The notes beneath the pieces are model-generated. The model had not been told where the DNA came from. It saw only the letters and a program-made list of their open reading frames with translations, and searched no databases. A stretch of DNA of 62,284 nt from a virus. Where the stretch lies: the IMG/VR virus record IMGVR_UViG_2919730853_000001, positions 1 to 62,284 of that record. The stretch is one strand, 5' to 3'. The position numbers and the translations under genes were made by a program. Shown piece after piece: positions 2,619-62,284 of the stretch (the first letter of the stretch is position 1; the number at the start of each line of letters is the position of its first letter).

Positions 2619-3758
2619 ATGTATACAGTAAATTCATTTTTCTGCGGTGGCGGTGGGTTCGATTTAGGATTCATTAACGCTGGCTTTGAAGTGGTTGGGG
2701 CTTGGGACTTCGACAAATATGCAGTACAATCCTATGCACACAATATCGACACGTTAGTTAAAGAAGCAGACGTTAGTACAATGTCATGGAGAGACTTACG
2801 ACCAGCTTCAGTATGGTTGTTCGGGTTTCCGTGTCAGGATATAAGTATAGCTGGACTGAAAGCAGGAATGATTAAAGGAGAAACTAGAAGTGGTCTTTTC
2901 TATGAAATCATGCGATTGCTGCAAGAAGTTCGAACTGCTACCCCTGGATCTCTTCCTGAAATTATACTTGCCGAAAACGTCAAGGCAGTAAAGAAGTACT
3001 TACCTACGATTGAAGAAGAGTATGCCAAGGTGGGCTACAAGATGTACTACGTTCTGTACAATTCAAAGTATCAAGGTTTAGCCCAAAACAGGGAACGTTA
3101 TTTCATCTTGGGTGTTCGAGAGGATATTAAACAAACGTTTGTTTTTGAAGAACAACAGACTGAATTTGTGCCAAAACTGAAAGACTTTCTAGAAGATCAT
3201 GCCGACGAAAAGTTTTATGTAGAGGATATTAAAGCACTTCATATCATTGAAAAAGCTGAAGAAGGGCTTCGAGTAAAACAGGCTACCAAGAAAGGTTACG
3301 ATGTTGCAGTAGAGGGCGACATGATTAATGTTACCCGTCCTAATAGTAAAACAAGACGTGGCCGCATTGGAAAACAGATAGCACAAACGCTATTAACTGG
3401 TCATGAACAGGTTGTAGTTGAATCGTTACCTACTATCAATGTTCTAGGAATGTTGGACATTAACGGTCATGACAATATTCGTCGTGTCTATGATGTTGAC
3501 GGGTTAAGCCCAACACTCAATACCGGAGGCGGTGGAAATCGCCAACCTAAAATTTTGGACTACGATAGATTAAAGGTAAGGAAATTAACACCGAGAGAAT
3601 TTGCTAGGCTTCAGGGTTTTCCAGAGTCATACCAACAAGTAGTATCTAACGTTCAATTCTATAAGCAGATGGGGAATGCCGTATCTGTTCCTGTAGCTGA
3701 ATTCGTGGCAGGGCAGATTAAACAGTACCTTGAATATTTAGAAATGTGTTCTAATTAA
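2619..3758 (+). CDS. dcm: DNA (cytosine-5)-methyltransferase
   Basis: FCGGGGFDLGF (motif I), FPCQDIS (IV), ENV (VI), QNRERYFILG (VIII), TPREFARLQGFP, GNAVSVPV (X). Confidence 0.9.
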   Translation: MYTVNSFFCGGGGFDLGFINAGFEVVGAWDFDKYAVQSYAHNIDTLVKEADVSTMSWRDLRPASVWLFGFPCQDISIAGLKAGMIKGETRSGLFYEIMRLLQEVRTATPGSLPEIILAENVKAVKKYLPTIEEEYAKVGYKMYYVLYNSKYQGLAQNRERYFILGVREDIKQTFVFEEQQTEFVPKLKDFLEDHADEKFYVEDIKALHIIEKAEEGLRVKQATKKGYDVAVEGDMINVTRPNSKTRRGRIGKQIAQTLLTGHEQVVVESLPTINVLGMLDINGHDNIRRVYDVDGLSPTLNTGGGGNRQPKILDYDRLKVRKLTPREFARLQGFPESYQQVVSNVQFYKQMGNAVSVPVAEFVAGQIKQYLEYLEMCSN

Positions 3759-49876: not shown

Positions 49877-49915
49877 AAAAAGGACACGGCATTTAGCCAT
49901 GTCCTCTTTTTTTTT
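49877..49915. terminator. Bidirectional terminator between convergent genes
   Basis: Stem AGGACA-GGC/GCC-TGTCCT with an A-run upstream and a T9 run downstream. Confidence 0.7.
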
Positions 49916-51065
49916 ATTTACCTTCTACACGATTCTTTAATGAATTATAAACCGCAGAAATTCCAGCTTCTCCACCATTAAAGGCAAGAATACCATTAAT
50001 TTCACTTAAACGTCCACCGAAATTATACCAGTGTTTTGAATCCATTTCCCACTCTTCACTCTTAATTGCTGCCATTATATCTTTGTCGTCAATCTTGTTT
50101 AATTTAGCCCAATGAATGAACTTTGCAACACCTTTTAAAGCATAGTTTTTCTCTAACAAATACTTACCTTTGATGTGTAGATCGGTAGGAAGATTTTTAA
50201 AAACCATATCTAAAGTATTATCTACAATGGTTTTATAAAGTCCATAATTCTTAGAGTTTAGGAAATCAATATCTTTCTTATATTCTGACCAAAACAGTCT
50301 TTTAATAAATTCATAGACAGTAGTTAAAAGTATAAAGTTAGAGTTATTTCTTTGAATACTCATTTTATCCATCTCTACGCCATATCGTTTTAAATACATA
50401 TTTTGTTCTGTAAGTTCACGTGATAATTTTGCAATATAATCAGTCTGTGCAAGTCTGATAGTTGCTGAACGGCTTGGACGTTGGGCTTTTGCATTTGTAT
50501 CATAGAATAGTTGACTTTCTTCAATCTCATTTAATCCAGCAAATATAGTTAAAGGTATAACCATTTCTTCTAATTCTCTAATATAATCATTAATTTGTTG
50601 TCTAGTCGCCTGGTCTTTTGCTTTGTTACTTCTACCCTCTAATTCTCTTAAAGCTTCACACACGCCAAAGTGTCTATGTTGTCCATCATTTAATGAGAGT
50701 TTACTATTTTGAGTATCTATAGCTAATTGTTTTGAAGATTCATCATAGAATACATTACCTCTAGCTGTAGCTGTAACTGAAGGGAAAAAACGCATTGTAG
50801 ATTTATCTGTAACACCTGAAATAGTATAAGTTTTAATTTTAGAAACTTTTCTAGCTACTGTATTTCTTTGAACATTTGGGAAAACATCTAAAAAGGTTCT
50901 TAAATCTTTAAACTTAATTAAAGTTGTAAATATATCATTCCCGAACTGCTTGCCTTTTATACCACTAAGCGTGGCATATTGCTGAACCTTCATATCATGG
51001 TCACGTTTCGCTTTCAGCATTGCCTCTACTTCTTGCATTGGTTCGTTATAAAGTTGTTTTGCCAT
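49914..51065 (-). CDS. DGQHR-domain protein (DndB-like, ParB/Srx fold)
   Basis: LSLNDGQHRHFG and QLFYDTNAKAQRPS motifs. The start is probably ATG 51065 (RBS AAGGTAGG); the track ORF extends to TTG 51110. Confidence 0.75.
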   Translation of the reverse strand: MAKQLYNEPMQEVEAMLKAKRDHDMKVQQYATLSGIKGKQFGNDIFTTLIKFKDLRTFLDVFPNVQRNTVARKVSKIKTYTISGVTDKSTMRFFPSVTATARGNVFYDESSKQLAIDTQNSKLSLNDGQHRHFGVCEALRELEGRSNKAKDQATRQQINDYIRELEEMVIPLTIFAGLNEIEESQLFYDTNAKAQRPSRSATIRLAQTDYIAKLSRELTEQNMYLKRYGVEMDKMSIQRNNSNFILLTTVYEFIKRLFWSEYKKDIDFLNSKNYGLYKTIVDNTLDMVFKNLPTDLHIKGKYLLEKNYALKGVAKFIHWAKLNKIDDKDIMAAIKSEEWEMDSKHWYNFGGRLSEINGILAFNGGEAGISAVYNSLKNRVEGK

Positions 51066-51478
51066 TTGAATACCTACCTTTTCCATTAATTTAATTTGCT
51101 TACTAGTCAATTATACCCTATAAAGATGTTCTTATCTGTGTTAATTTATGTCAAATTTCGACACGAAAAAACCCCCATGCACTAGGCACAGGGGCTTTCT
51201 CTGTAAGGATGATACTTTCCGGTATCATTATCAAATTAAATTAACTTTCAAGGCGTAATGCATCTACCCAAAGGATTAGACCATTACTTTTTAGTTAAAA
51301 AAAAAACTAACTTTCAAGGTAAGTACAGTATAGCATTGTAATGTACTCGAAGTAAAGGAAAAATATTCACTGGAATTAACTTTCTTATTACAAACAGATT
51401 AAGTTGAATAAAAAAGATTGTACTACACAGAGTAGTTATTATATTATGTACTTATACGTGTAGGGAGAGTGAGAAATA

Positions 51479-51918: not shown

Positions 51919-51976
51919 TTGTAAATGTAAGGCAAAGATCATTGAAAATTAAATAACTTTAAAGGTGGAATTATTC

Positions 51977-52774
51977 ATGGAAATCATTTGTGTATCAAAC
52001 AACAAAGGCGGAATTCTTAAAACTACCACAGCTACAAACCTTGCTGGTGTATTGGCTAAACAAGGTAAGAAAGTTCTTATCATTGACGCTGATAATCAAA
52101 GCAATGTTCTCCTAACTTTTGACCTGAACCCCGACGAAATATCTGAAGGTATGTTCGAAGTCCTCACAGGTCAGTGTGACGTTAACGATGCCATCATTAA
52201 CGTATACGACAATATTGACGTAATTCCTTCTACGGACAATATGACGGGTTTTGAGTTCCGAATTCTTAGAAATAGAGAAGCTTATCCCGATGATAAAATC
52301 TTTGATATTATGAAAGATACCTTCGCAAATCTTGAAGAGAAATATGACTATGTTTTTATTGATACACCGCCATCTTTAGGGCTAATTGTAGGGAATGCTT
52401 TTAACTACGCTGATAAAGTTTTAATCCCATACGTACCGGAGAAATACGCACAACGTTCATTAACAAAGGTTATCGAAGAGATTAAAGAATTCGCTTTTGA
52501 TTCTAACCCTAAACTTGAAATTATGGGCGTAGTTGCTACATTAACTAGAATGCATACAAAGGTGCATAGACGTGTAATGTTAGAAACACAAGAATGGTGT
52601 AAAGTAATGAAGATACCATTATTTGACACGCAAATCCCTATGACTATCTCCTATGCTGATGCAGTGGACGATAAGCATTTACCAGCAGTATTAGACGAAA
52701 CTACTACTTCAGGTATTCATTATGAAATGTTATGGGAGGAAATTTGTAACTATGAGTATGAAACGAAACGCTAA
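51977..52774 (+). CDS. parA: ParA/Soj-family partition ATPase
   Basis: Deviant Walker A SNNKGGILKTT. IIDADNQ. RBS AAAGGTGGAA precedes the ATG at 51977. Confidence 0.85.
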   Translation: MEIICVSNNKGGILKTTTATNLAGVLAKQGKKVLIIDADNQSNVLLTFDLNPDEISEGMFEVLTGQCDVNDAIINVYDNIDVIPSTDNMTGFEFRILRNREAYPDDKIFDIMKDTFANLEEKYDYVFIDTPPSLGLIVGNAFNYADKVLIPYVPEKYAQRSLTKVIEEIKEFAFDSNPKLEIMGVVATLTRMHTKVHRRVMLETQEWCKVMKIPLFDTQIPMTISYADAVDDKHLPAVLDETTTSGIHYEMLWEEICNYEYETKR

Positions 52775-54812: not shown

Positions 54813-54842
54813 TTGCAAAAGTGTAGACACATATGATAGTAT
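54813..54842 (+). promoter_or_regulatory. Sigma-A-like promoter TTGCAA-N18-(TGn)TAGTAT
   Basis: Read directly. Lies upstream of the recombinase gene. Confidence 0.4.
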
Positions 54843-54886: not shown

Positions 54887-55717
54887 ATGACAACAACTGA
54901 AGGCACTATTTATGGATATGCACGTGTATCGACTCAACAACAAGATTTAACTTTACAAATTGAGTCACTTTTGAAAGCAGGAATTGAACATAAAAATATC
55001 TATACTGATAAGCAAACAGGGAAGAATATGGATAGAGAAAGTTTAAATGAATTACTTAAAAAGGTTCGACCAGGCGACATTATTTTAGTTAAAAAATTAG
55101 ACCGTCTTGGACGTTCCGTATCACAAGTAATTGCTTTACTTGAAAAATTATATGAACGAGATATTTATGTAAAATCTATAGATGATGGCGTGGACACGTC
55201 AAACAATTCTCCAATGGCACAAGCTATGGTTCACCTATTAGCCATGTTTGCTGAGATGGAGAGACGTTTTATAAAAGAGAGAACAGAACCGGCTATTGCA
55301 AGGGCACGTGCTGAAGGTAGACAATTTGGGCGTACTGAATCAAATAAAGGTTTATATGAACGTGCATTAGAGGAATTTTTAAGCCCTGAAAATAAGAAAA
55401 CTTTTAAAACGATTCAAGAGGAATACGGGAAAGATGATAATGGTAAATGGTTTCTAAGTCAAACAACCTTCTTTAGACGTGTCGCTGAACGTCGTGCGGT
55501 GGAAGCTTATTTAGAAGGTAAATTTCCAAGCGAGATAGAAGCAGTAGAAGATACTAAGGAAAATCAAAGAGAAGTTTATGATGCTGAGTCAGGGAAAAGT
55601 ATATGGGTGGATAACCAAGAATTAGGTGACTTCCGTTTATTCTTAAAAAACGAATACATGGGGTTAACGCCTAAACGTTTTCACCGTGTTCTGAAAGAGT
55701 TTAAAAAGAATAAGTAA
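54887..55717 (+). CDS. Small serine recombinase (resolvase/invertase family) with a C-terminal extension
   Basis: IYGYARVSTQQQDLTLQ and VKKLDRLGRS motifs. At 276 aa it is too short for a large serine integrase. Confidence 0.8.
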   Translation: MTTTEGTIYGYARVSTQQQDLTLQIESLLKAGIEHKNIYTDKQTGKNMDRESLNELLKKVRPGDIILVKKLDRLGRSVSQVIALLEKLYERDIYVKSIDDGVDTSNNSPMAQAMVHLLAMFAEMERRFIKERTEPAIARARAEGRQFGRTESNKGLYERALEEFLSPENKKTFKTIQEEYGKDDNGKWFLSQTTFFRRVAERRAVEAYLEGKFPSEIEAVEDTKENQREVYDAESGKSIWVDNQELGDFRLFLKNEYMGLTPKRFHRVLKEFKKNK

Positions 55718-57104: not shown

Positions 57105-57133
57105 TTGACTTTCAAAAGTGTGTACAGTAAAGT
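57105..57133 (+). promoter_or_regulatory. Early promoter TTGACT-N17-TAAAGT
   Basis: TTGACTTTCAAAAGTGTGTACAGTAAAGT. Confidence 0.6.
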
Positions 57134-57166
57134 AAGTATCAGATAAACGAAACGAGGTTATGAGAA

Positions 57167-57327: not shown

Positions 57328-57356
57328 TTGACTTTCAAAAGTCTATACAGTAAAGT
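57328..57356 (+). promoter_or_regulatory. Early promoter TTGACT-N17-TAAAGT, GTAAGG at 57365
   Basis: TTGACTTTCAAAAGTCTATACAGTAAAGT. Confidence 0.6.
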
Positions 57357-57403
57357 AAGTAACTGTAAGGAACAAACAAATTAACTGAAATGAGGTACTA
57401 AAA

Positions 57404-57886
57404 ATGAGTGAACAATTATCATTATTCGGATTCGATGAAGTAGTAGAAGAGGTTGTAGAAGTTGTGGAAGTTGCCCCTGTAGTAGAGGAAGTTGTACCAG
57501 CTAAACCGGCTAAAAAGAAAGCTGTTAAAAAAGCACCAGCTAAAAAGAAAGCCCCTGCTAAAAAGGTAGCTTCTAAAAAGTCAGAACTTATAAAATCTCG
57601 TACTGCTAAAATGTCAAAACGTGGTATCTATATTCAAGATAAAGCTTTACTTGAAACTAGTTTCCAAGTTGGTACATACTTTGAAGTTAATATTGATACT
57701 AATATTGTCACTGTTTCTAGTACTAAAACTAAAGGTAAAAATACAGTTTCAAAACGTGCTATGAAATCATTCGTAAAGCCTGTTATTGATATTCGTCAAA
57801 AGGATGCATTAGCAACGTTTGAAGGATGTTCTGAATTAACTATCAATATCTATTCAGATAAAATTGAAATCGTGGGGGTTAAATAA
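57404..57886 (+). CDS. Early protein with an N-terminal QLSLF clamp-binding-type motif, an acidic V/E tract and a Lys/Ala-rich histone-H1-like tract
   Basis: MSEQLSLFGFDE..VVEEVVEVVEV..PAKPAKKKAVKKAPAKKKAPAKKVASKK, followed by a C-terminal domain of about 90 aa. Confidence 0.6.
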   Translation: MSEQLSLFGFDEVVEEVVEVVEVAPVVEEVVPAKPAKKKAVKKAPAKKKAPAKKVASKKSELIKSRTAKMSKRGIYIQDKALLETSFQVGTYFEVNIDTNIVTVSSTKTKGKNTVSKRAMKSFVKPVIDIRQKDALATFEGCSELTINIYSDKIEIVGVK

Positions 57887-57888
57887 TC

Positions 57889-58134
57889 ATGGATTTATTA
57901 AATAAGGAATTAGTAGCAAATGTTTTATACGCCCAATATGCAAGCGAAAATCATATGTATTGGGTGTTATCCAAGCAGTATATAAAGACATATGAAAAGG
58001 GGGATTATGCGGAGGCTTTAAGCATTAAAAAAGAAATTGATGCTGTGTATGCAAAGATACAGGCTATCAATGAAAGCAGGGTTCACCTTGGCATTAGTGA
58101 CCATTTATGGGATACGGTCAGTTTGAACTTCTAA
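57889..58134 (+). CDS. Hypothetical early protein (81 aa)
   Basis: ORF close-coupled to the upstream gene. Confidence 0.55.
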   Translation: MDLLNKELVANVLYAQYASENHMYWVLSKQYIKTYEKGDYAEALSIKKEIDAVYAKIQAINESRVHLGISDHLWDTVSLNF

Positions 58135-58166
58135 AAAAAGTTTTTAAAAAAAGTTTCAAAAATGTG

Positions 58167-58195
58167 TAGACATTTGAAAGTTTATAGTGTAAAGT
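58167..58195 (+). promoter_or_regulatory. Early promoter TAGACA-N17-TAAAGT, GTAAGG at 58207
   Basis: Read directly. Confidence 0.5.
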
Positions 58196-58255
58196 AATAA
58201 GTGTCGGTAAGGCGACAACAAATTAAATTAAATTAACTAAAAGGTGGAAATTAAA

Positions 58256-58741
58256 ATGACAAACGTATTAGAACTAAACTACTTAAATCTTGGAAATATG
58301 GACTTCGCAACATTAACTCTTCCGGCTTCAAATGAAGAAATCAATGAGTTCTTTGAAAAGCTTAATCCAATGGACACAGACGTTGAATTACAATGGGTTG
58401 AATCAGATTTTGAATCTAACTTGAATAACCTTTCATTATCACAATTAAAAATCATTGCAGACCTAGATAATGCTGAAGACTTTGATGCAGTATTCTCAGC
58501 GTGTGACGTGTTCAGTGAAGCAATTGAACATCTTGAAAATGGTACATATACAATCTTTGAAAATGTTGAAAATGATTATGACCTTGGGTGGGAACTTGCA
58601 GAACGAAACAACATTGTAGACCCTAACGACGATAGCATTTTAGCTAGATACTTCGACTATGAAAAGTATGGTCAAGATTGTCGCTTTGAAGGTGGTTTTC
58701 ACTGGATTAACTTTAACACAGTGGTAGAACTTCACAGATAA
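58256..58741 (+). CDS. ardA: ArdA-like anti-restriction protein (acidic DNA mimic)
   Basis: Highly acidic, 161 aa. The C-terminal YFDYEKYGQDCRFEGGFHWI resembles the ArdA motif Y.DY..YGRD....G.F. Confidence 0.55.
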   Translation: MTNVLELNYLNLGNMDFATLTLPASNEEINEFFEKLNPMDTDVELQWVESDFESNLNNLSLSQLKIIADLDNAEDFDAVFSACDVFSEAIEHLENGTYTIFENVENDYDLGWELAERNNIVDPNDDSILARYFDYEKYGQDCRFEGGFHWINFNTVVELHR

Positions 58742-58823: not shown

Positions 58824-58853
58824 TTGACTTTCAAAAGTGTACAGTGTTATGAT
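58824..58853 (+). promoter_or_regulatory. Early promoter TTGACT-N18-(TGn)TATGAT, GTAAGG at 58861
   Basis: Read directly. Confidence 0.55.
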
Positions 58854-58907
58854 AATTCTCGTAAGGAACAAACAAACAAATTAAATTGACAAAAGGTGGA
58901 AATCAAA

Positions 58908-59951: not shown

Positions 59952-60025
59952 GACAGTTATTCCACCTTTACAGACGGGGGTTTTTACCCCCTACCAAAAG
60001 AAAATAAAAAACTTTCAAAAATGTG

Positions 60026-60055
60026 TAGACAAGTGAAAGTATATCATGTTATATT
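60026..60055 (+). promoter_or_regulatory. Early promoter TAGACA-N18-(TGn)TATATT, GTAAGG at 60065
   Basis: Read directly. Confidence 0.5.
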
Positions 60056-61598: not shown

Positions 61599-62099
61599 AT
61601 GTACTTTTTTACTGATCTTTTATCGATGAAATGAAAACTTGACAGGAATCAAAATCTGTGTATATAGGTAGCAGCAAACACATATTTGACAAGATTAAGA
61701 AAGTGTGATATGAAGAGGGATTTTTTATGTACATTTGACAGAATGGAAAAAGTGTGCTTACACCTTGCAGCAATTACATTAATTAGGAGAAAAAGAGGTA
61801 ACTTGACAAAGGGATTTTTTTATGTATAGAGGTCTGATTTTAAGGAACTTGACAAGCTAGTTTTTTTATGTATTCAAGGTGAAAAAACAGTGATTTGACA
61901 AGATGGTTTTTTTATGTATTAGGTCAGAAAAAAGGGGTGTTTGACAAGTCACTTTTTTTATGGTATGCACAAGTGAATTTTTTTAAACAGTTATATAGAA
62001 GAAACTAGGAAAAAGGACTTTTTTTAATTAGGTTTTTTTGTGCAAATATCGCTTCCTTGCCTTTTTTACAGACCGCCTCCAAGAACTTTTTTTATGCAC
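61592..62099 (+). repeat. Array of promoter-like units: seven TTGACA boxes and about nine T7-ATG(T/C)A boxes
   Basis: TTGACA at 61639, 61686, 61735, 61803, 61849, 61895 and 61941. The last four units have a 46-nt period with invariant TTGACA-N6-TTTTTTT-ATG. Confidence 0.75.
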
Positions 62100-62284
62100 A
62101 ATTACAGGGCTTTAAATAACCCACCTATGCAATACCCCTCCCTATATAGAACGCCCCTATATGACCCCATATAACGCCCCTATGCAGTACCCCCATATAA
62201 TACCCCCTATATAGCACCCCCTATATGTACCCCTACCTATATACCAGTAGTAGTAGTGGTAGTAGTACCCATACCAGTACACCA
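62100..62284 (+). repeat. CCCC(C)TATAT-type 13-nt periodic repeats (C/A-rich region, left part)
   Basis: At least eight units between 62134 and 62245. Continues into 1..330. Confidence 0.7.
62190..62284. repeat. Terminal direct repeat, copy B (identical to 1..95)
   Basis: Direct comparison. Confidence 0.9.

Follow-up and report, generated by a model that had tools for sequence, protein, structure and literature searches.

A phage protein joining a candidate beta-clamp-binding motif to a predicted MraZ-like domain that also occurs on C5 cytosine methyltransferases

The DNA we investigated, IMG/VR virus record IMGVR_UViG_2919730853_000001 (62,284 nucleotides, hereafter the window), is a complete phage-type genome, structural genes included. 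It contains an open reading frame (ORF), 57404-57886, whose product begins with MSEQLSLFGFDE and carries the pentapeptide QLSLF, an exact match to the motif by which bacterial proteins bind the sliding clamp DnaN. The pentapeptide is followed by an acidic Val/Glu tract, a Lys/Ala tract (PAKPAKKKAVKKAPAKKKAPAKKVASKK) and a folded domain of about 100 amino acids. The same domain is found at the N-terminus of many C5 cytosine methyltransferases from Bacillales, where a clamp-type motif recurs. We propose, tentatively, that the protein is a DNA-binding adaptor tethered to the clamp, a module for targeting replication in free-standing form; in its full form we consider this statement possible, if short of probable. 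A first-pass annotation of the window had read the protein as an early host-takeover factor that docks on DnaN, either to block host replication or to recruit the clamp to phage DNA. The identity of the domain, together with its homology to methyltransferases, points towards replication-coupled targeting within a methylation or anti-restriction programme rather than towards plain host shut-off.

The N-terminal pentapeptide

The strict consensus QL[SD]LF matches only once in all six frames of the window, at residues 4-8 of the ORF product, and the looser form Q[LIM][SD][LIFM]F likewise returns this single match. From the window's amino-acid frequencies, 0.019 matches to the strict consensus would be expected in the plus-strand proteome; for the first eight residues of any ORF the figure falls to about 0.0009. 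The first-pass annotation, which had singled out the pentapeptide as an exact consensus match at an exposed terminus, is borne out on both counts: in the AlphaFold2 (AF2) model, residues 1-59 have a predicted local distance difference test (pLDDT) score of 55 or lower and no predicted secondary structure, which places the motif in a disordered terminus. The acidic Val/Glu tract described at the same time is also present (residues 9-31).

Conservation of the motif in homologs had been named as a check, and the homologs do retain it. A database search returned eight close homologs with E-values from 2e-61 to 1e-23; six of these keep QLSLF, QLSFF or QLDLF, in N-termini that read MSEQLSLFG, MGEQLSFFE, MSEQLSFFE or MSEQLDLFA, and the flanks and the linker diverge. 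The acidic linker of the homologs varies in both length and sequence. Two more distant standalone proteins carry related forms N-terminal to the domain, namely P0013 (MTEQMDLFGF, with QMDLF) and P0011 (EQLDFFSMFDE, with QLDFF).

The three pentapeptides kept by the close homologs are all published ligands of Bacillus subtilis DnaN, with affinities determined in vitro by fluorescence polarisation: QLSLF is the motif of PolC and binds with a dissociation constant (KD) of 3-7 µM, QLDLF is the motif of Pol Y1 and the tightest binder, and QLSFF, the motif of MutS, binds as a peptide as well (PMC12309361; bioRxiv 10.64898/2026.05.27.728225). An acidic residue after the motif has been reported to aid clamp binding (PMC11139829), and such a residue directly follows the motif in the window protein and in the methyltransferase linkers described below. 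The sequence comparisons support the view that the N-terminal pentapeptide behaves as a selected short linear motif, and we think it probable that it is a functional DnaN ligand.

The Lys/Ala tract, which the first-pass annotation had called histone-H1-like, is real (residues 32-59, with 13 Lys in 28 residues and imperfect internal direct repeats in the DNA), but it is missing from all eight close homologs. It accounts for half of the spacer, and in the DNA alignment it locally takes the place of an acidic, VEEV-type linker stretch of the VEEVAPVEESTV type; P0013 has a different K-rich stretch at the same position. Judged by the homologs compared, the tract is outside the conserved design of the family; it may add non-specific DNA affinity.

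The folded domain and its methyltransferase relatives

In the full-length AF2 model residues 61-160 reach a pLDDT of about 90. A model of the domain alone, built on 81 diverse homologs, has a pLDDT of 96.7 and a predicted template modelling score (pTM) of 0.87, and consists of two beta-beta-alpha-beta-beta repeats. When PDB structures were searched with Foldseek, a query TM score (TMq) above 0.5 was reached by MraZ chains only (1n0e, 9qlg, 9r4j and 9sz7; TMq 0.51-0.58, probability 0.72-0.95), at 10-15% sequence identity; the matches to DnaN and small heat-shock proteins, with TM scores of 0.28 or lower, were set aside as noise. Sequence and profile searches against PDB chains found nothing. 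SymE is a protein of the AbrB fold (PMC1891008), and the Pfam family SymE_toxin (PF08845) matches five of the 81 homologous domains, with a best E-value of 1.8e-5; the window protein is not among the five, and the MraZ model (PF02381) matches no member of the family either. With 17 Lys and Arg against 11 Asp and Glu the domain is net basic. We conclude that, at the level of the predicted fold, the domain belongs to the AbrB/SymE superfamily and has an MraZ-like architecture, and that by sequence it lies outside the MraZ family. The folded domain of about 90 residues expected from the first-pass annotation is thus present, at 100 residues (60-160), and is now described as a tandem AbrB/SymE-type, MraZ-like domain.

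The ORF product has no meaningful match in Pfam, PHROGs, NCBIfam or PADLOC, and none to the known anti-restriction families in Pfam and PHROG, ArdA being only the product of a neighbouring gene (58244-58741). The relationship that we find is instead to DNA methyltransferases. A profile search of 1.8 billion cluster representatives gave 151 matches (clusters at 50% identity), the majority of them proteins of 450-590 amino acids with the domain at the extreme N-terminus, and PF00145 and TIGR00675 identify these long proteins as C5 cytosine methyltransferases. The fusions (P0039, L071, L038 and others) are homologous to residues 60-160 with profile E-values down to 1e-50, and the nearer ones are 43-56% identical to this part. 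The window protein itself does not match PF00145 or TIGR00675; the catalytic domain, with motif I (FxGxG) and motif IV (PCQ), is absent, and the ORF stops right after the N-terminal-type domain. The idea that the standalone gene is a truncated fusion was rejected, since its motif and that of the fusions flank the domain on opposite sides. Several standalone homologs bear the Joint Genome Institute (JGI) label 'DNA (cytosine-5)-methyltransferase 1', which is a misnomer, because they share the domain with methyltransferases but have no catalytic domain. Among predicted viral structures the best match is a 137-residue 'C-5 cytosine-specific DNA methylase' from a marine phage (E 8e-5).

When species-representative genomes were scanned with DNA patterns, true members turned up only in Bacillales (Paenibacillus, Cytobacillus, Heyndrickxia, Bacillus rugosus, Evansella, Kurthia and Sporosarcina), and a phage-sized metagenomic contig of 63 kb also encodes a fusion. 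In a word-indexed protein search, the 81-sequence profile retrieved just 14 proteins, all short and none a fusion, and DNA scans of IMG/VR with the A2 patterns and the KPVIDIRxK pattern found no true relative. Among nine neighbours of genomic methyltransferase fusions, the one Pfam match was to a group II intron reverse transcriptase. Some members of the family carry further insertions or extensions: P0018 and P0075 contain inteins with LAGLIDADG domains within the methyltransferase part, in P0038 a LysM domain is inserted inside the N-terminal domain, and the standalone forms P0010 and P0159 have Cys-rich, zinc-ribbon-like C-termini.

The clamp-type motif is enriched across this family. Outside the domain, Q[LIM][SDN][LIFM]F is found in 20 of 150 cluster representatives, compared to 0.56 in composition-matched shuffles, and the linkers of 22 of the 83 fusions match a penta- or hexapeptide clamp motif (mean 2.0 and maximum 8 in 500 shuffles). 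The catalytic parts of the fusions, roughly 300 amino acids each, contain only one motif match. The linkers often contain EQLS[IF]F[DE] (e.g., QLSIFD, QLSFFD, QLNIFD, QLTIFD and QQFSIFD) or an extended form, such as EQLELDLF, EQMELDLFF or GQLSLDLF, that fits the hexapeptide consensus. EQLELDLF-type forms resemble LQLELDF, a clamp binder obtained by phage display (PMC11139829). The motif lies N-terminal to the domain in the window protein, P0001-6, P0013, P0011, P0077 and P0116 (the last two with QLNFF), and at the extreme C-terminus of the enzyme, as QLALF, in P0073 and P0082, the latter of which also has a linker copy. This freedom of position, at the N-terminus, in the linker or at the C-terminus, is typical of a portable short linear motif. 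In the fusions the linker motif stands 34-44 residues ahead of motif I, and the intervening stretch, with many Ser, Thr, Asp and Asn residues, varies.

Because the domain and the motif are shared with many C5 methyltransferases of Bacillales, the module is best read as a device for targeting replication forks or nascent DNA. We envisage that QLSLF, being identical to the clamp motif of PolC, would dock in the hydrophobic cleft of the host DnaN, that the disordered spacer would let the MraZ-like domain contact DNA beside the clamp, and that this basic, single-chain tandem domain would bind the DNA. Expressed from its own sigma-A-type promoter among early genes of the anti-restriction type, the protein would accumulate early in infection at sites of clamp loading, on DNA that is replicating or has just been copied. 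Placed ahead of a methyltransferase catalytic domain, the module would bring the enzyme to nascent DNA. The downstream effect might be to shield or mark nascent DNA, to help methylation, or to compete with the clamp clients PolC, MutS, MutL and Pol Y. Clamp binding, DNA binding, early timing and downstream effect are all properties that we infer for the ORF product. A wider claim, that the domain and QLSxF form an unrecognised fork-targeting module, that a sizeable group of C5 methyltransferases of Bacillales and phages ride the clamp to methylate nascent DNA, as a bacterial counterpart of DNMT1 on PCNA, and that phages of this group deploy the module alone, early and beside ardA to act on newly replicated DNA, seems to us doubtful, though worth stating; a module deployed in this way could protect new DNA against restriction, bring in a partner, or dislodge host factors from the clamp.

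Several observations weigh against the adaptor reading. The affinity of the isolated QLSLF peptide for B. subtilis DnaN is just 3-7 µM (PMC12309361). The Foldseek E-values to MraZ are weak (0.2-0.6), and the window protein has no Pfam match to AbrB, MraZ or SymE at an E-value below 10. The phage encodes its own family-A polymerase and, with a helicase and a primase of its own as well, has no obvious need to recruit the clamp for its replication. In the related phage L072 the protein is encoded, but the site syntenic to that of the window's own methyltransferase gene (2619-3758) holds no methyltransferase. A standalone clade, P0007-P0010, lacks the motif and the N-terminal extension, and has an acidic linker and other C-terminal modules in place of the motif. 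Approximately three quarters of the methyltransferase fusions have no strict consensus match, and many are off-consensus (e.g., EQLSFDSLF and EQISWFD), so the element may be a family-specific motif with another partner. The fusion motif is also preceded by a conserved hhhhSxxxLxxAxG element which, together with the fairly constant 34-44 residues to motif I, could mean a structural role.

The last of these points bear on an alternative in which EQLS[LIF]F[DE] is a family-specific peptide that binds the AbrB-like domain as an autoinhibitor, or the methyltransferase, or some other partner, and the match to the clamp consensus is coincidental. The off-consensus variants in the fusions agree with this idea, as do the specific co-occurrence of the peptide with the domain, its regular spacing to motif I, and the reach of two PADLOC type II methyltransferase models into the linker region. 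However, AF2 leaves the N-terminus undocked on the domain (pLDDT about 55 or lower), an intramolecular structural role fits poorly with a motif that can precede the domain, follow it or stand at the enzyme's extreme C-terminus, and the close homologs vary only among published DnaN-binding peptides. We therefore regard a coincidental match as unlikely, if by no means fanciful.

The fold of the domain also invites the explanation that the protein is a clamp-dependent transcription factor in the manner of MuC of phage Mu or gp45 of T4, its domain binding specific phage promoters and its motif recruiting a loaded clamp as co-activator, so that middle or late transcription is coupled to replication. 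The N- and C-terminal clamp motifs of MuC serve transcription, in what its authors propose to be a widespread strategy (PMC12867686). MraZ and AbrB are transcription factors of the same fold, and the repeated promoter-linked boxes and palindromes in the region could be operators. A promoter-specific activator is difficult to reconcile with the presence of the same domain on methyltransferases in more than 80 cluster representatives, and a separate sigma-like late regulator is seen as Sigma70_r4 genes in related loci. Some methyltransferases, such as M.SsoII and M.EcoRII, regulate their own expression through N-terminal DNA-binding domains, which softens the objection from the fusions. On balance, we judge a clamp-dependent transcription factor to be highly unlikely.

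Gene neighbourhood and expression signals

The coordinates of the ORF, of its parts and of the neighbouring genes that bear on its role are collected in Table 1.

Table 1. Features of ORF 57404-57886 and of selected genes in the window
Feature	Positions	Strand	Basis or remark
Whole ORF	57404-57886	+	160 amino acids plus stop; translation begins MSEQLSLFGFDEVVEEVVEVVEVAPVVEEVVPAKPAKKKAVKKAPAKKKAPAKKVASKKSELIKS
Candidate beta-clamp-binding motif QLSLF, residues 4-8	57413-57427	+	Sole six-frame match; kept in homologs
Acidic Val/Glu-rich disordered linker, residues 9-31	57428-57496	+	AF2 pLDDT below 50
Lys/Ala/Pro tract PAKPAKKKAVKKAPAKKKAPAKKVASKK, residues 32-59	57497-57580	+	Lineage-specific; 13 Lys
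Folded domain, residues 60-160	57581-57883	+	Predicted tandem AbrB/SymE-type swapped-hairpin units; MraZ-like; net basic
Ribosome-binding site TGAGGT	57391-57396	+	8 nt ahead of ATG; read from sequence
Sigma-A-type promoter TTGACT-17 nt-TAAAGT, with shared box TTGACTTTCAAAAGT	57328-57356	+	Consensus scan, 9/12
81-residue ORF	57889-58134	+	2-nt gap after ORF 57404-57886; no promoter or terminator between
ArdA anti-restriction protein, own promoter	58244-58741	+	PF07275, E 1.4e-9, 39.2 bits (cut-off 27); phrog_2059
C5 cytosine methyltransferase without N-terminal domain	2619-3758	+	tblastn; TIGR00675 dcm, 2.8e-59

The first-pass annotation had given the gene a strong sigma-A early promoter of its own. 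A promoter is found there and scores 9/12 against the consensus, but its strength is not borne out, as the -10 hexamer TAAAGT fits the consensus at just four of six positions. In the DNA alignment both hexamers are kept in the related phages L001 and L005, with substitutions in the spacer, and the GAGGTA of the ribosome-binding site is present in both as well. The promoter at 57328 is a member of a repeated family, with others at 57105, 58824 and 56630, and similar promoters precede small genes across 56.6-60.1 kb. The conserved sigma-A-type promoter and the neighbouring ardA make early expression of the ORF plausible.

An exact direct repeat of 95 bp at 1-95 and 62190-62284 indicates that the genome is circular or terminally redundant, with a unit of approximately 62,189 bp, and contig L005 is continuous across the 62284/1 junction. 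Near-identical contigs of 62-64 kb occur in metagenomes and in one assembly of Priestia aryabhattai, which suggests that the host is probably Priestia or Bacillus, whose replicase is PolC. A megablast search of the region against GenBank phages gave only short matches of 37-48 nt, within unrelated genes. The replication module comprises DnaD-like proteins, a DnaB-type helicase, a Toprim primase and the family-A polymerase, which has proofreading, and the window further encodes nucleotide kinases, ParA, a serine resolvase and a DndB-like protein. The ParA and serine resolvase genes (51965-52774 and 54887-55717) lie upstream of ORF 57404-57886, and in related phages (L002/L072 and L003/L073) a ParM/Alp7A-like actin ATPase occupies the position of ParA. 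We take this as suggesting that the prophage is maintained like a plasmid and that its partition systems are exchangeable.

These genes matter for the blocking version of the takeover idea, in which the protein, made early and in excess, fills the DnaN cleft and displaces PolC, DnaE and repair factors, so that host replication stops while the phage proceeds with its family-A polymerase. A motif identical to that of PolC would suit such a competitor (PMC12309361), the promoter is of an early type, and a phage with its own polymerase, helicase and primase could tolerate the loss of the clamp. Overproduction of MuC is lethal through clamp titration (PMC12867686), and toxins and phage inhibitors that target the clamp do exist, among them SocB and RipA (PMC12795458) and Gp168 of phage Twort (PMC8565349); Gp168, the one structurally characterised phage clamp inhibitor that we came across, acts via the DNA channel and not the peptide cleft (PMC8565349). 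A single motif of micromolar affinity is a weak competitor, and the module of domain and motif is found also on methyltransferases of cellular genomes, where poisoning the clamp would be harmful. Moreover, ParA or ParM and the resolvase suggest plasmid-like lysogeny, in which a constitutive replication poison would need tight repression, and a peptide decoy would leave the conserved DNA-binding-type domain without a role. An inhibitor of this kind appears decidedly unlikely to us.

The 81-residue ORF that follows is probably co-transcribed with ORF 57404-57886. It is present in L005 (77%) and L001 (28%), is not conserved in L002/L072 or L003, and has no match in Pfam, PHROG or PADLOC. One could assume that the AbrB-fold protein and this ORF form a toxin-antitoxin-like pair, an addiction or abortive module of a plasmid-like prophage, since modules of this kind typically use the AbrB/MazE and SymE folds (PMC1891008), only 2 nt separate the two ORFs, and the neighbourhood, with ParA or ParM and the resolvase, is one of plasmid maintenance. 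We find this barely plausible. In addition to its patchy conservation, the 81-residue ORF matches no toxin family in the databases named; a tandem single-chain domain with an N-terminal tail is unlike antitoxins of the MazE type, and the main association of the domain is with methyltransferases.

For the adaptor reading the relevant neighbours are ardA and the window's own methyltransferase. ArdA is encoded within approximately 1.2 kb downstream in all three lineages examined that bear the clamp-type motif (L001, L005 and L002/L072), and one of the three additionally has an ArdC-N-like gene. Where the motif is lacking, in the lineage of L003, the gene is directly followed by a tandem paralog that consists of the bare domain, 103 amino acids long (L003 6566-6874, equivalent to L073 10566-10877). 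The listed GTG start of ArdA ('MEIKM...') falls within the Shine-Dalgarno sequence AAAGGTGGAAA, and the probable start is the ATG at 58256, 12 nt further on; ORFs 58896 and 60096 show the same problem, with the listed start inside the Shine-Dalgarno sequence.

The methyltransferase encoded at 2619-3758 begins at motif I (FFCGGGG) and lies approximately 7 kb downstream of the ORF across the circular junction; the order of the two genes is the same in the contiguous L005. It is located downstream of a GIY-YIG protein (588-1334) and is oriented like the early array of small genes. A partnership in trans between this enzyme and the ORF product was down-weighted, given that the enzyme shares no more than 23-28% identity with the catalytic parts of the fusions and that L072 has no methyltransferase at this site.

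The window holds several other features. The DndB-like protein (49914-51110; PF14072, 6e-24; PADLOC DndB, 6e-14) is encoded on the minus strand, opposite to nearly all genes, and its gene stands at the same place in all related phages, with no dndCDE seen nearby. A shared, partly palindromic box, TTTCAAAA(A/G)TGTGTAGACA..TTTGAAAG, overlaps early-type promoters at 58154-58183 and 60013-60042, and also at 54813-54842, 57110-57139 and 58829-58858; a repressor or regulator of the phage may use it as operator. Positions 61640-61965 hold an iteron-like array of at least four units of the form TTGACAAG-(5-6 nt)-TTTTTTTATGTAT with a period of 46 bp, and looser copies lie upstream of it. A sigma-A promoter would need wider spacing, and the array is a candidate origin or centromere-like site. 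The stretch from 62100-62284 into 1-330 is strongly C/A-rich and looks non-coding, with many CCCCTATAT-like units followed by CAGTAGTAGTAGTGG and ACCCATACCC repeats; the Tyr/Trp/Gly-rich ORFs listed there are surely artefacts, and the stretch could be a packaging, partition or telomere-like site.

Comparison with known systems

The known carriers of clamp motifs include polymerases, repair proteins, Hda, some transposases, TrfA and, as a recent addition, MuC of phage Mu; bacterial DNA methyltransferases and AbrB/MraZ-type proteins are not known to be among them. In the literature on methyltransferases, clamp-binding motifs and DnaN we found no report of a methyltransferase as a client of the bacterial clamp, and a clamp review from 2024 does not mention methyltransferases. 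If the motif is functional, then methyltransferases of Firmicutes, both orphan and in restriction-modification systems, would be equipped by their own structure to find the hemimethylated or unmethylated DNA behind the fork, phages would own a portable tag for going to replicating DNA that can be joined to different effectors, and a function open to testing could be assigned to an unannotated family of domains, with approximately 150 clusters at 50% identity. The idea of a portable tag is favoured by the homologs in which other C-terminal modules take the place of the motif.

The ORF product matches exactly the pentapeptide form QL[SD]LF of the clamp-binding motifs, known together with the hexapeptide form QxxLxL from PolC, Pol Y1, MutS and Hda, and has an acidic residue next to it; in Hda the motif is likewise N-terminal, comparable to its place in the disordered terminus of the ORF product (PMC5397184). 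Unlike these carriers from polymerisation, repair and initiation, the window protein is an uncharacterised phage protein with an AbrB/MraZ-type domain, and its motif is known from sequence. Among proteins of mobile elements, MuC, of the Mor/MuC family, is also a small phage DNA-binding protein with an N-terminal clamp motif, which uses the clamp for late transcription (PMC12867686); however, it has a helix-turn-helix fold of the Mor/C type, two motifs and a Gram-negative host. TrfA of plasmid RK2 carries the same QLSLF at residues 134-138 and, as a DNA-binding protein of a mobile element, engages the host clamp on its own DNA (PMC8034659), but TrfA is a winged-helix Rep initiator that acts at iterons, whereas the ORF product has no similarity to Rep proteins and the phage has separate genes for DnaD-like proteins, helicase and primase. 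Transposases of insertion sequences are further mobile-element proteins with QLSLF-type motifs (PMC4549789).

Twort Gp168, Caulobacter SocB and pneumococcal RipA show that proteins of mobile elements target DnaN (PMC8565349, PMC12795458). Gp168 does so by plugging the DNA channel instead of the peptide cleft (PMC8565349), and searches of Pfam, PHROGs and PADLOC found no link by sequence family between these inhibitors and the ORF product. With MraZ the ORF product shares, in its model, the arrangement of two AbrB-type units in one chain, and it differs in having no match to the Pfam families MraZ, SpoVT-AbrB or SymE. What is new here is that a clamp-type motif is carried by an unannotated domain of the predicted tandem AbrB/SymE type.

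In eukaryotes, the cytosine methyltransferase DNMT1 is tethered to the clamp PCNA by a PCNA-interacting peptide (PIP) box N-terminal to its catalytic domain. With a different clamp, motif and domain, this pair offers a conceptual analogy only. The closest comparison is with the N-terminal domain of the bacterial C5 methyltransferases, which is homologous to the domain of the ORF product and co-occurs with a QLSxF-type motif; the fusions differ in that they possess the catalytic domain and in that their motif lies on the other side of the N-terminal domain. The homology of the carrier domain to the N-termini of these enzymes, and the recurrence of the clamp-type motif in them, are likewise new.

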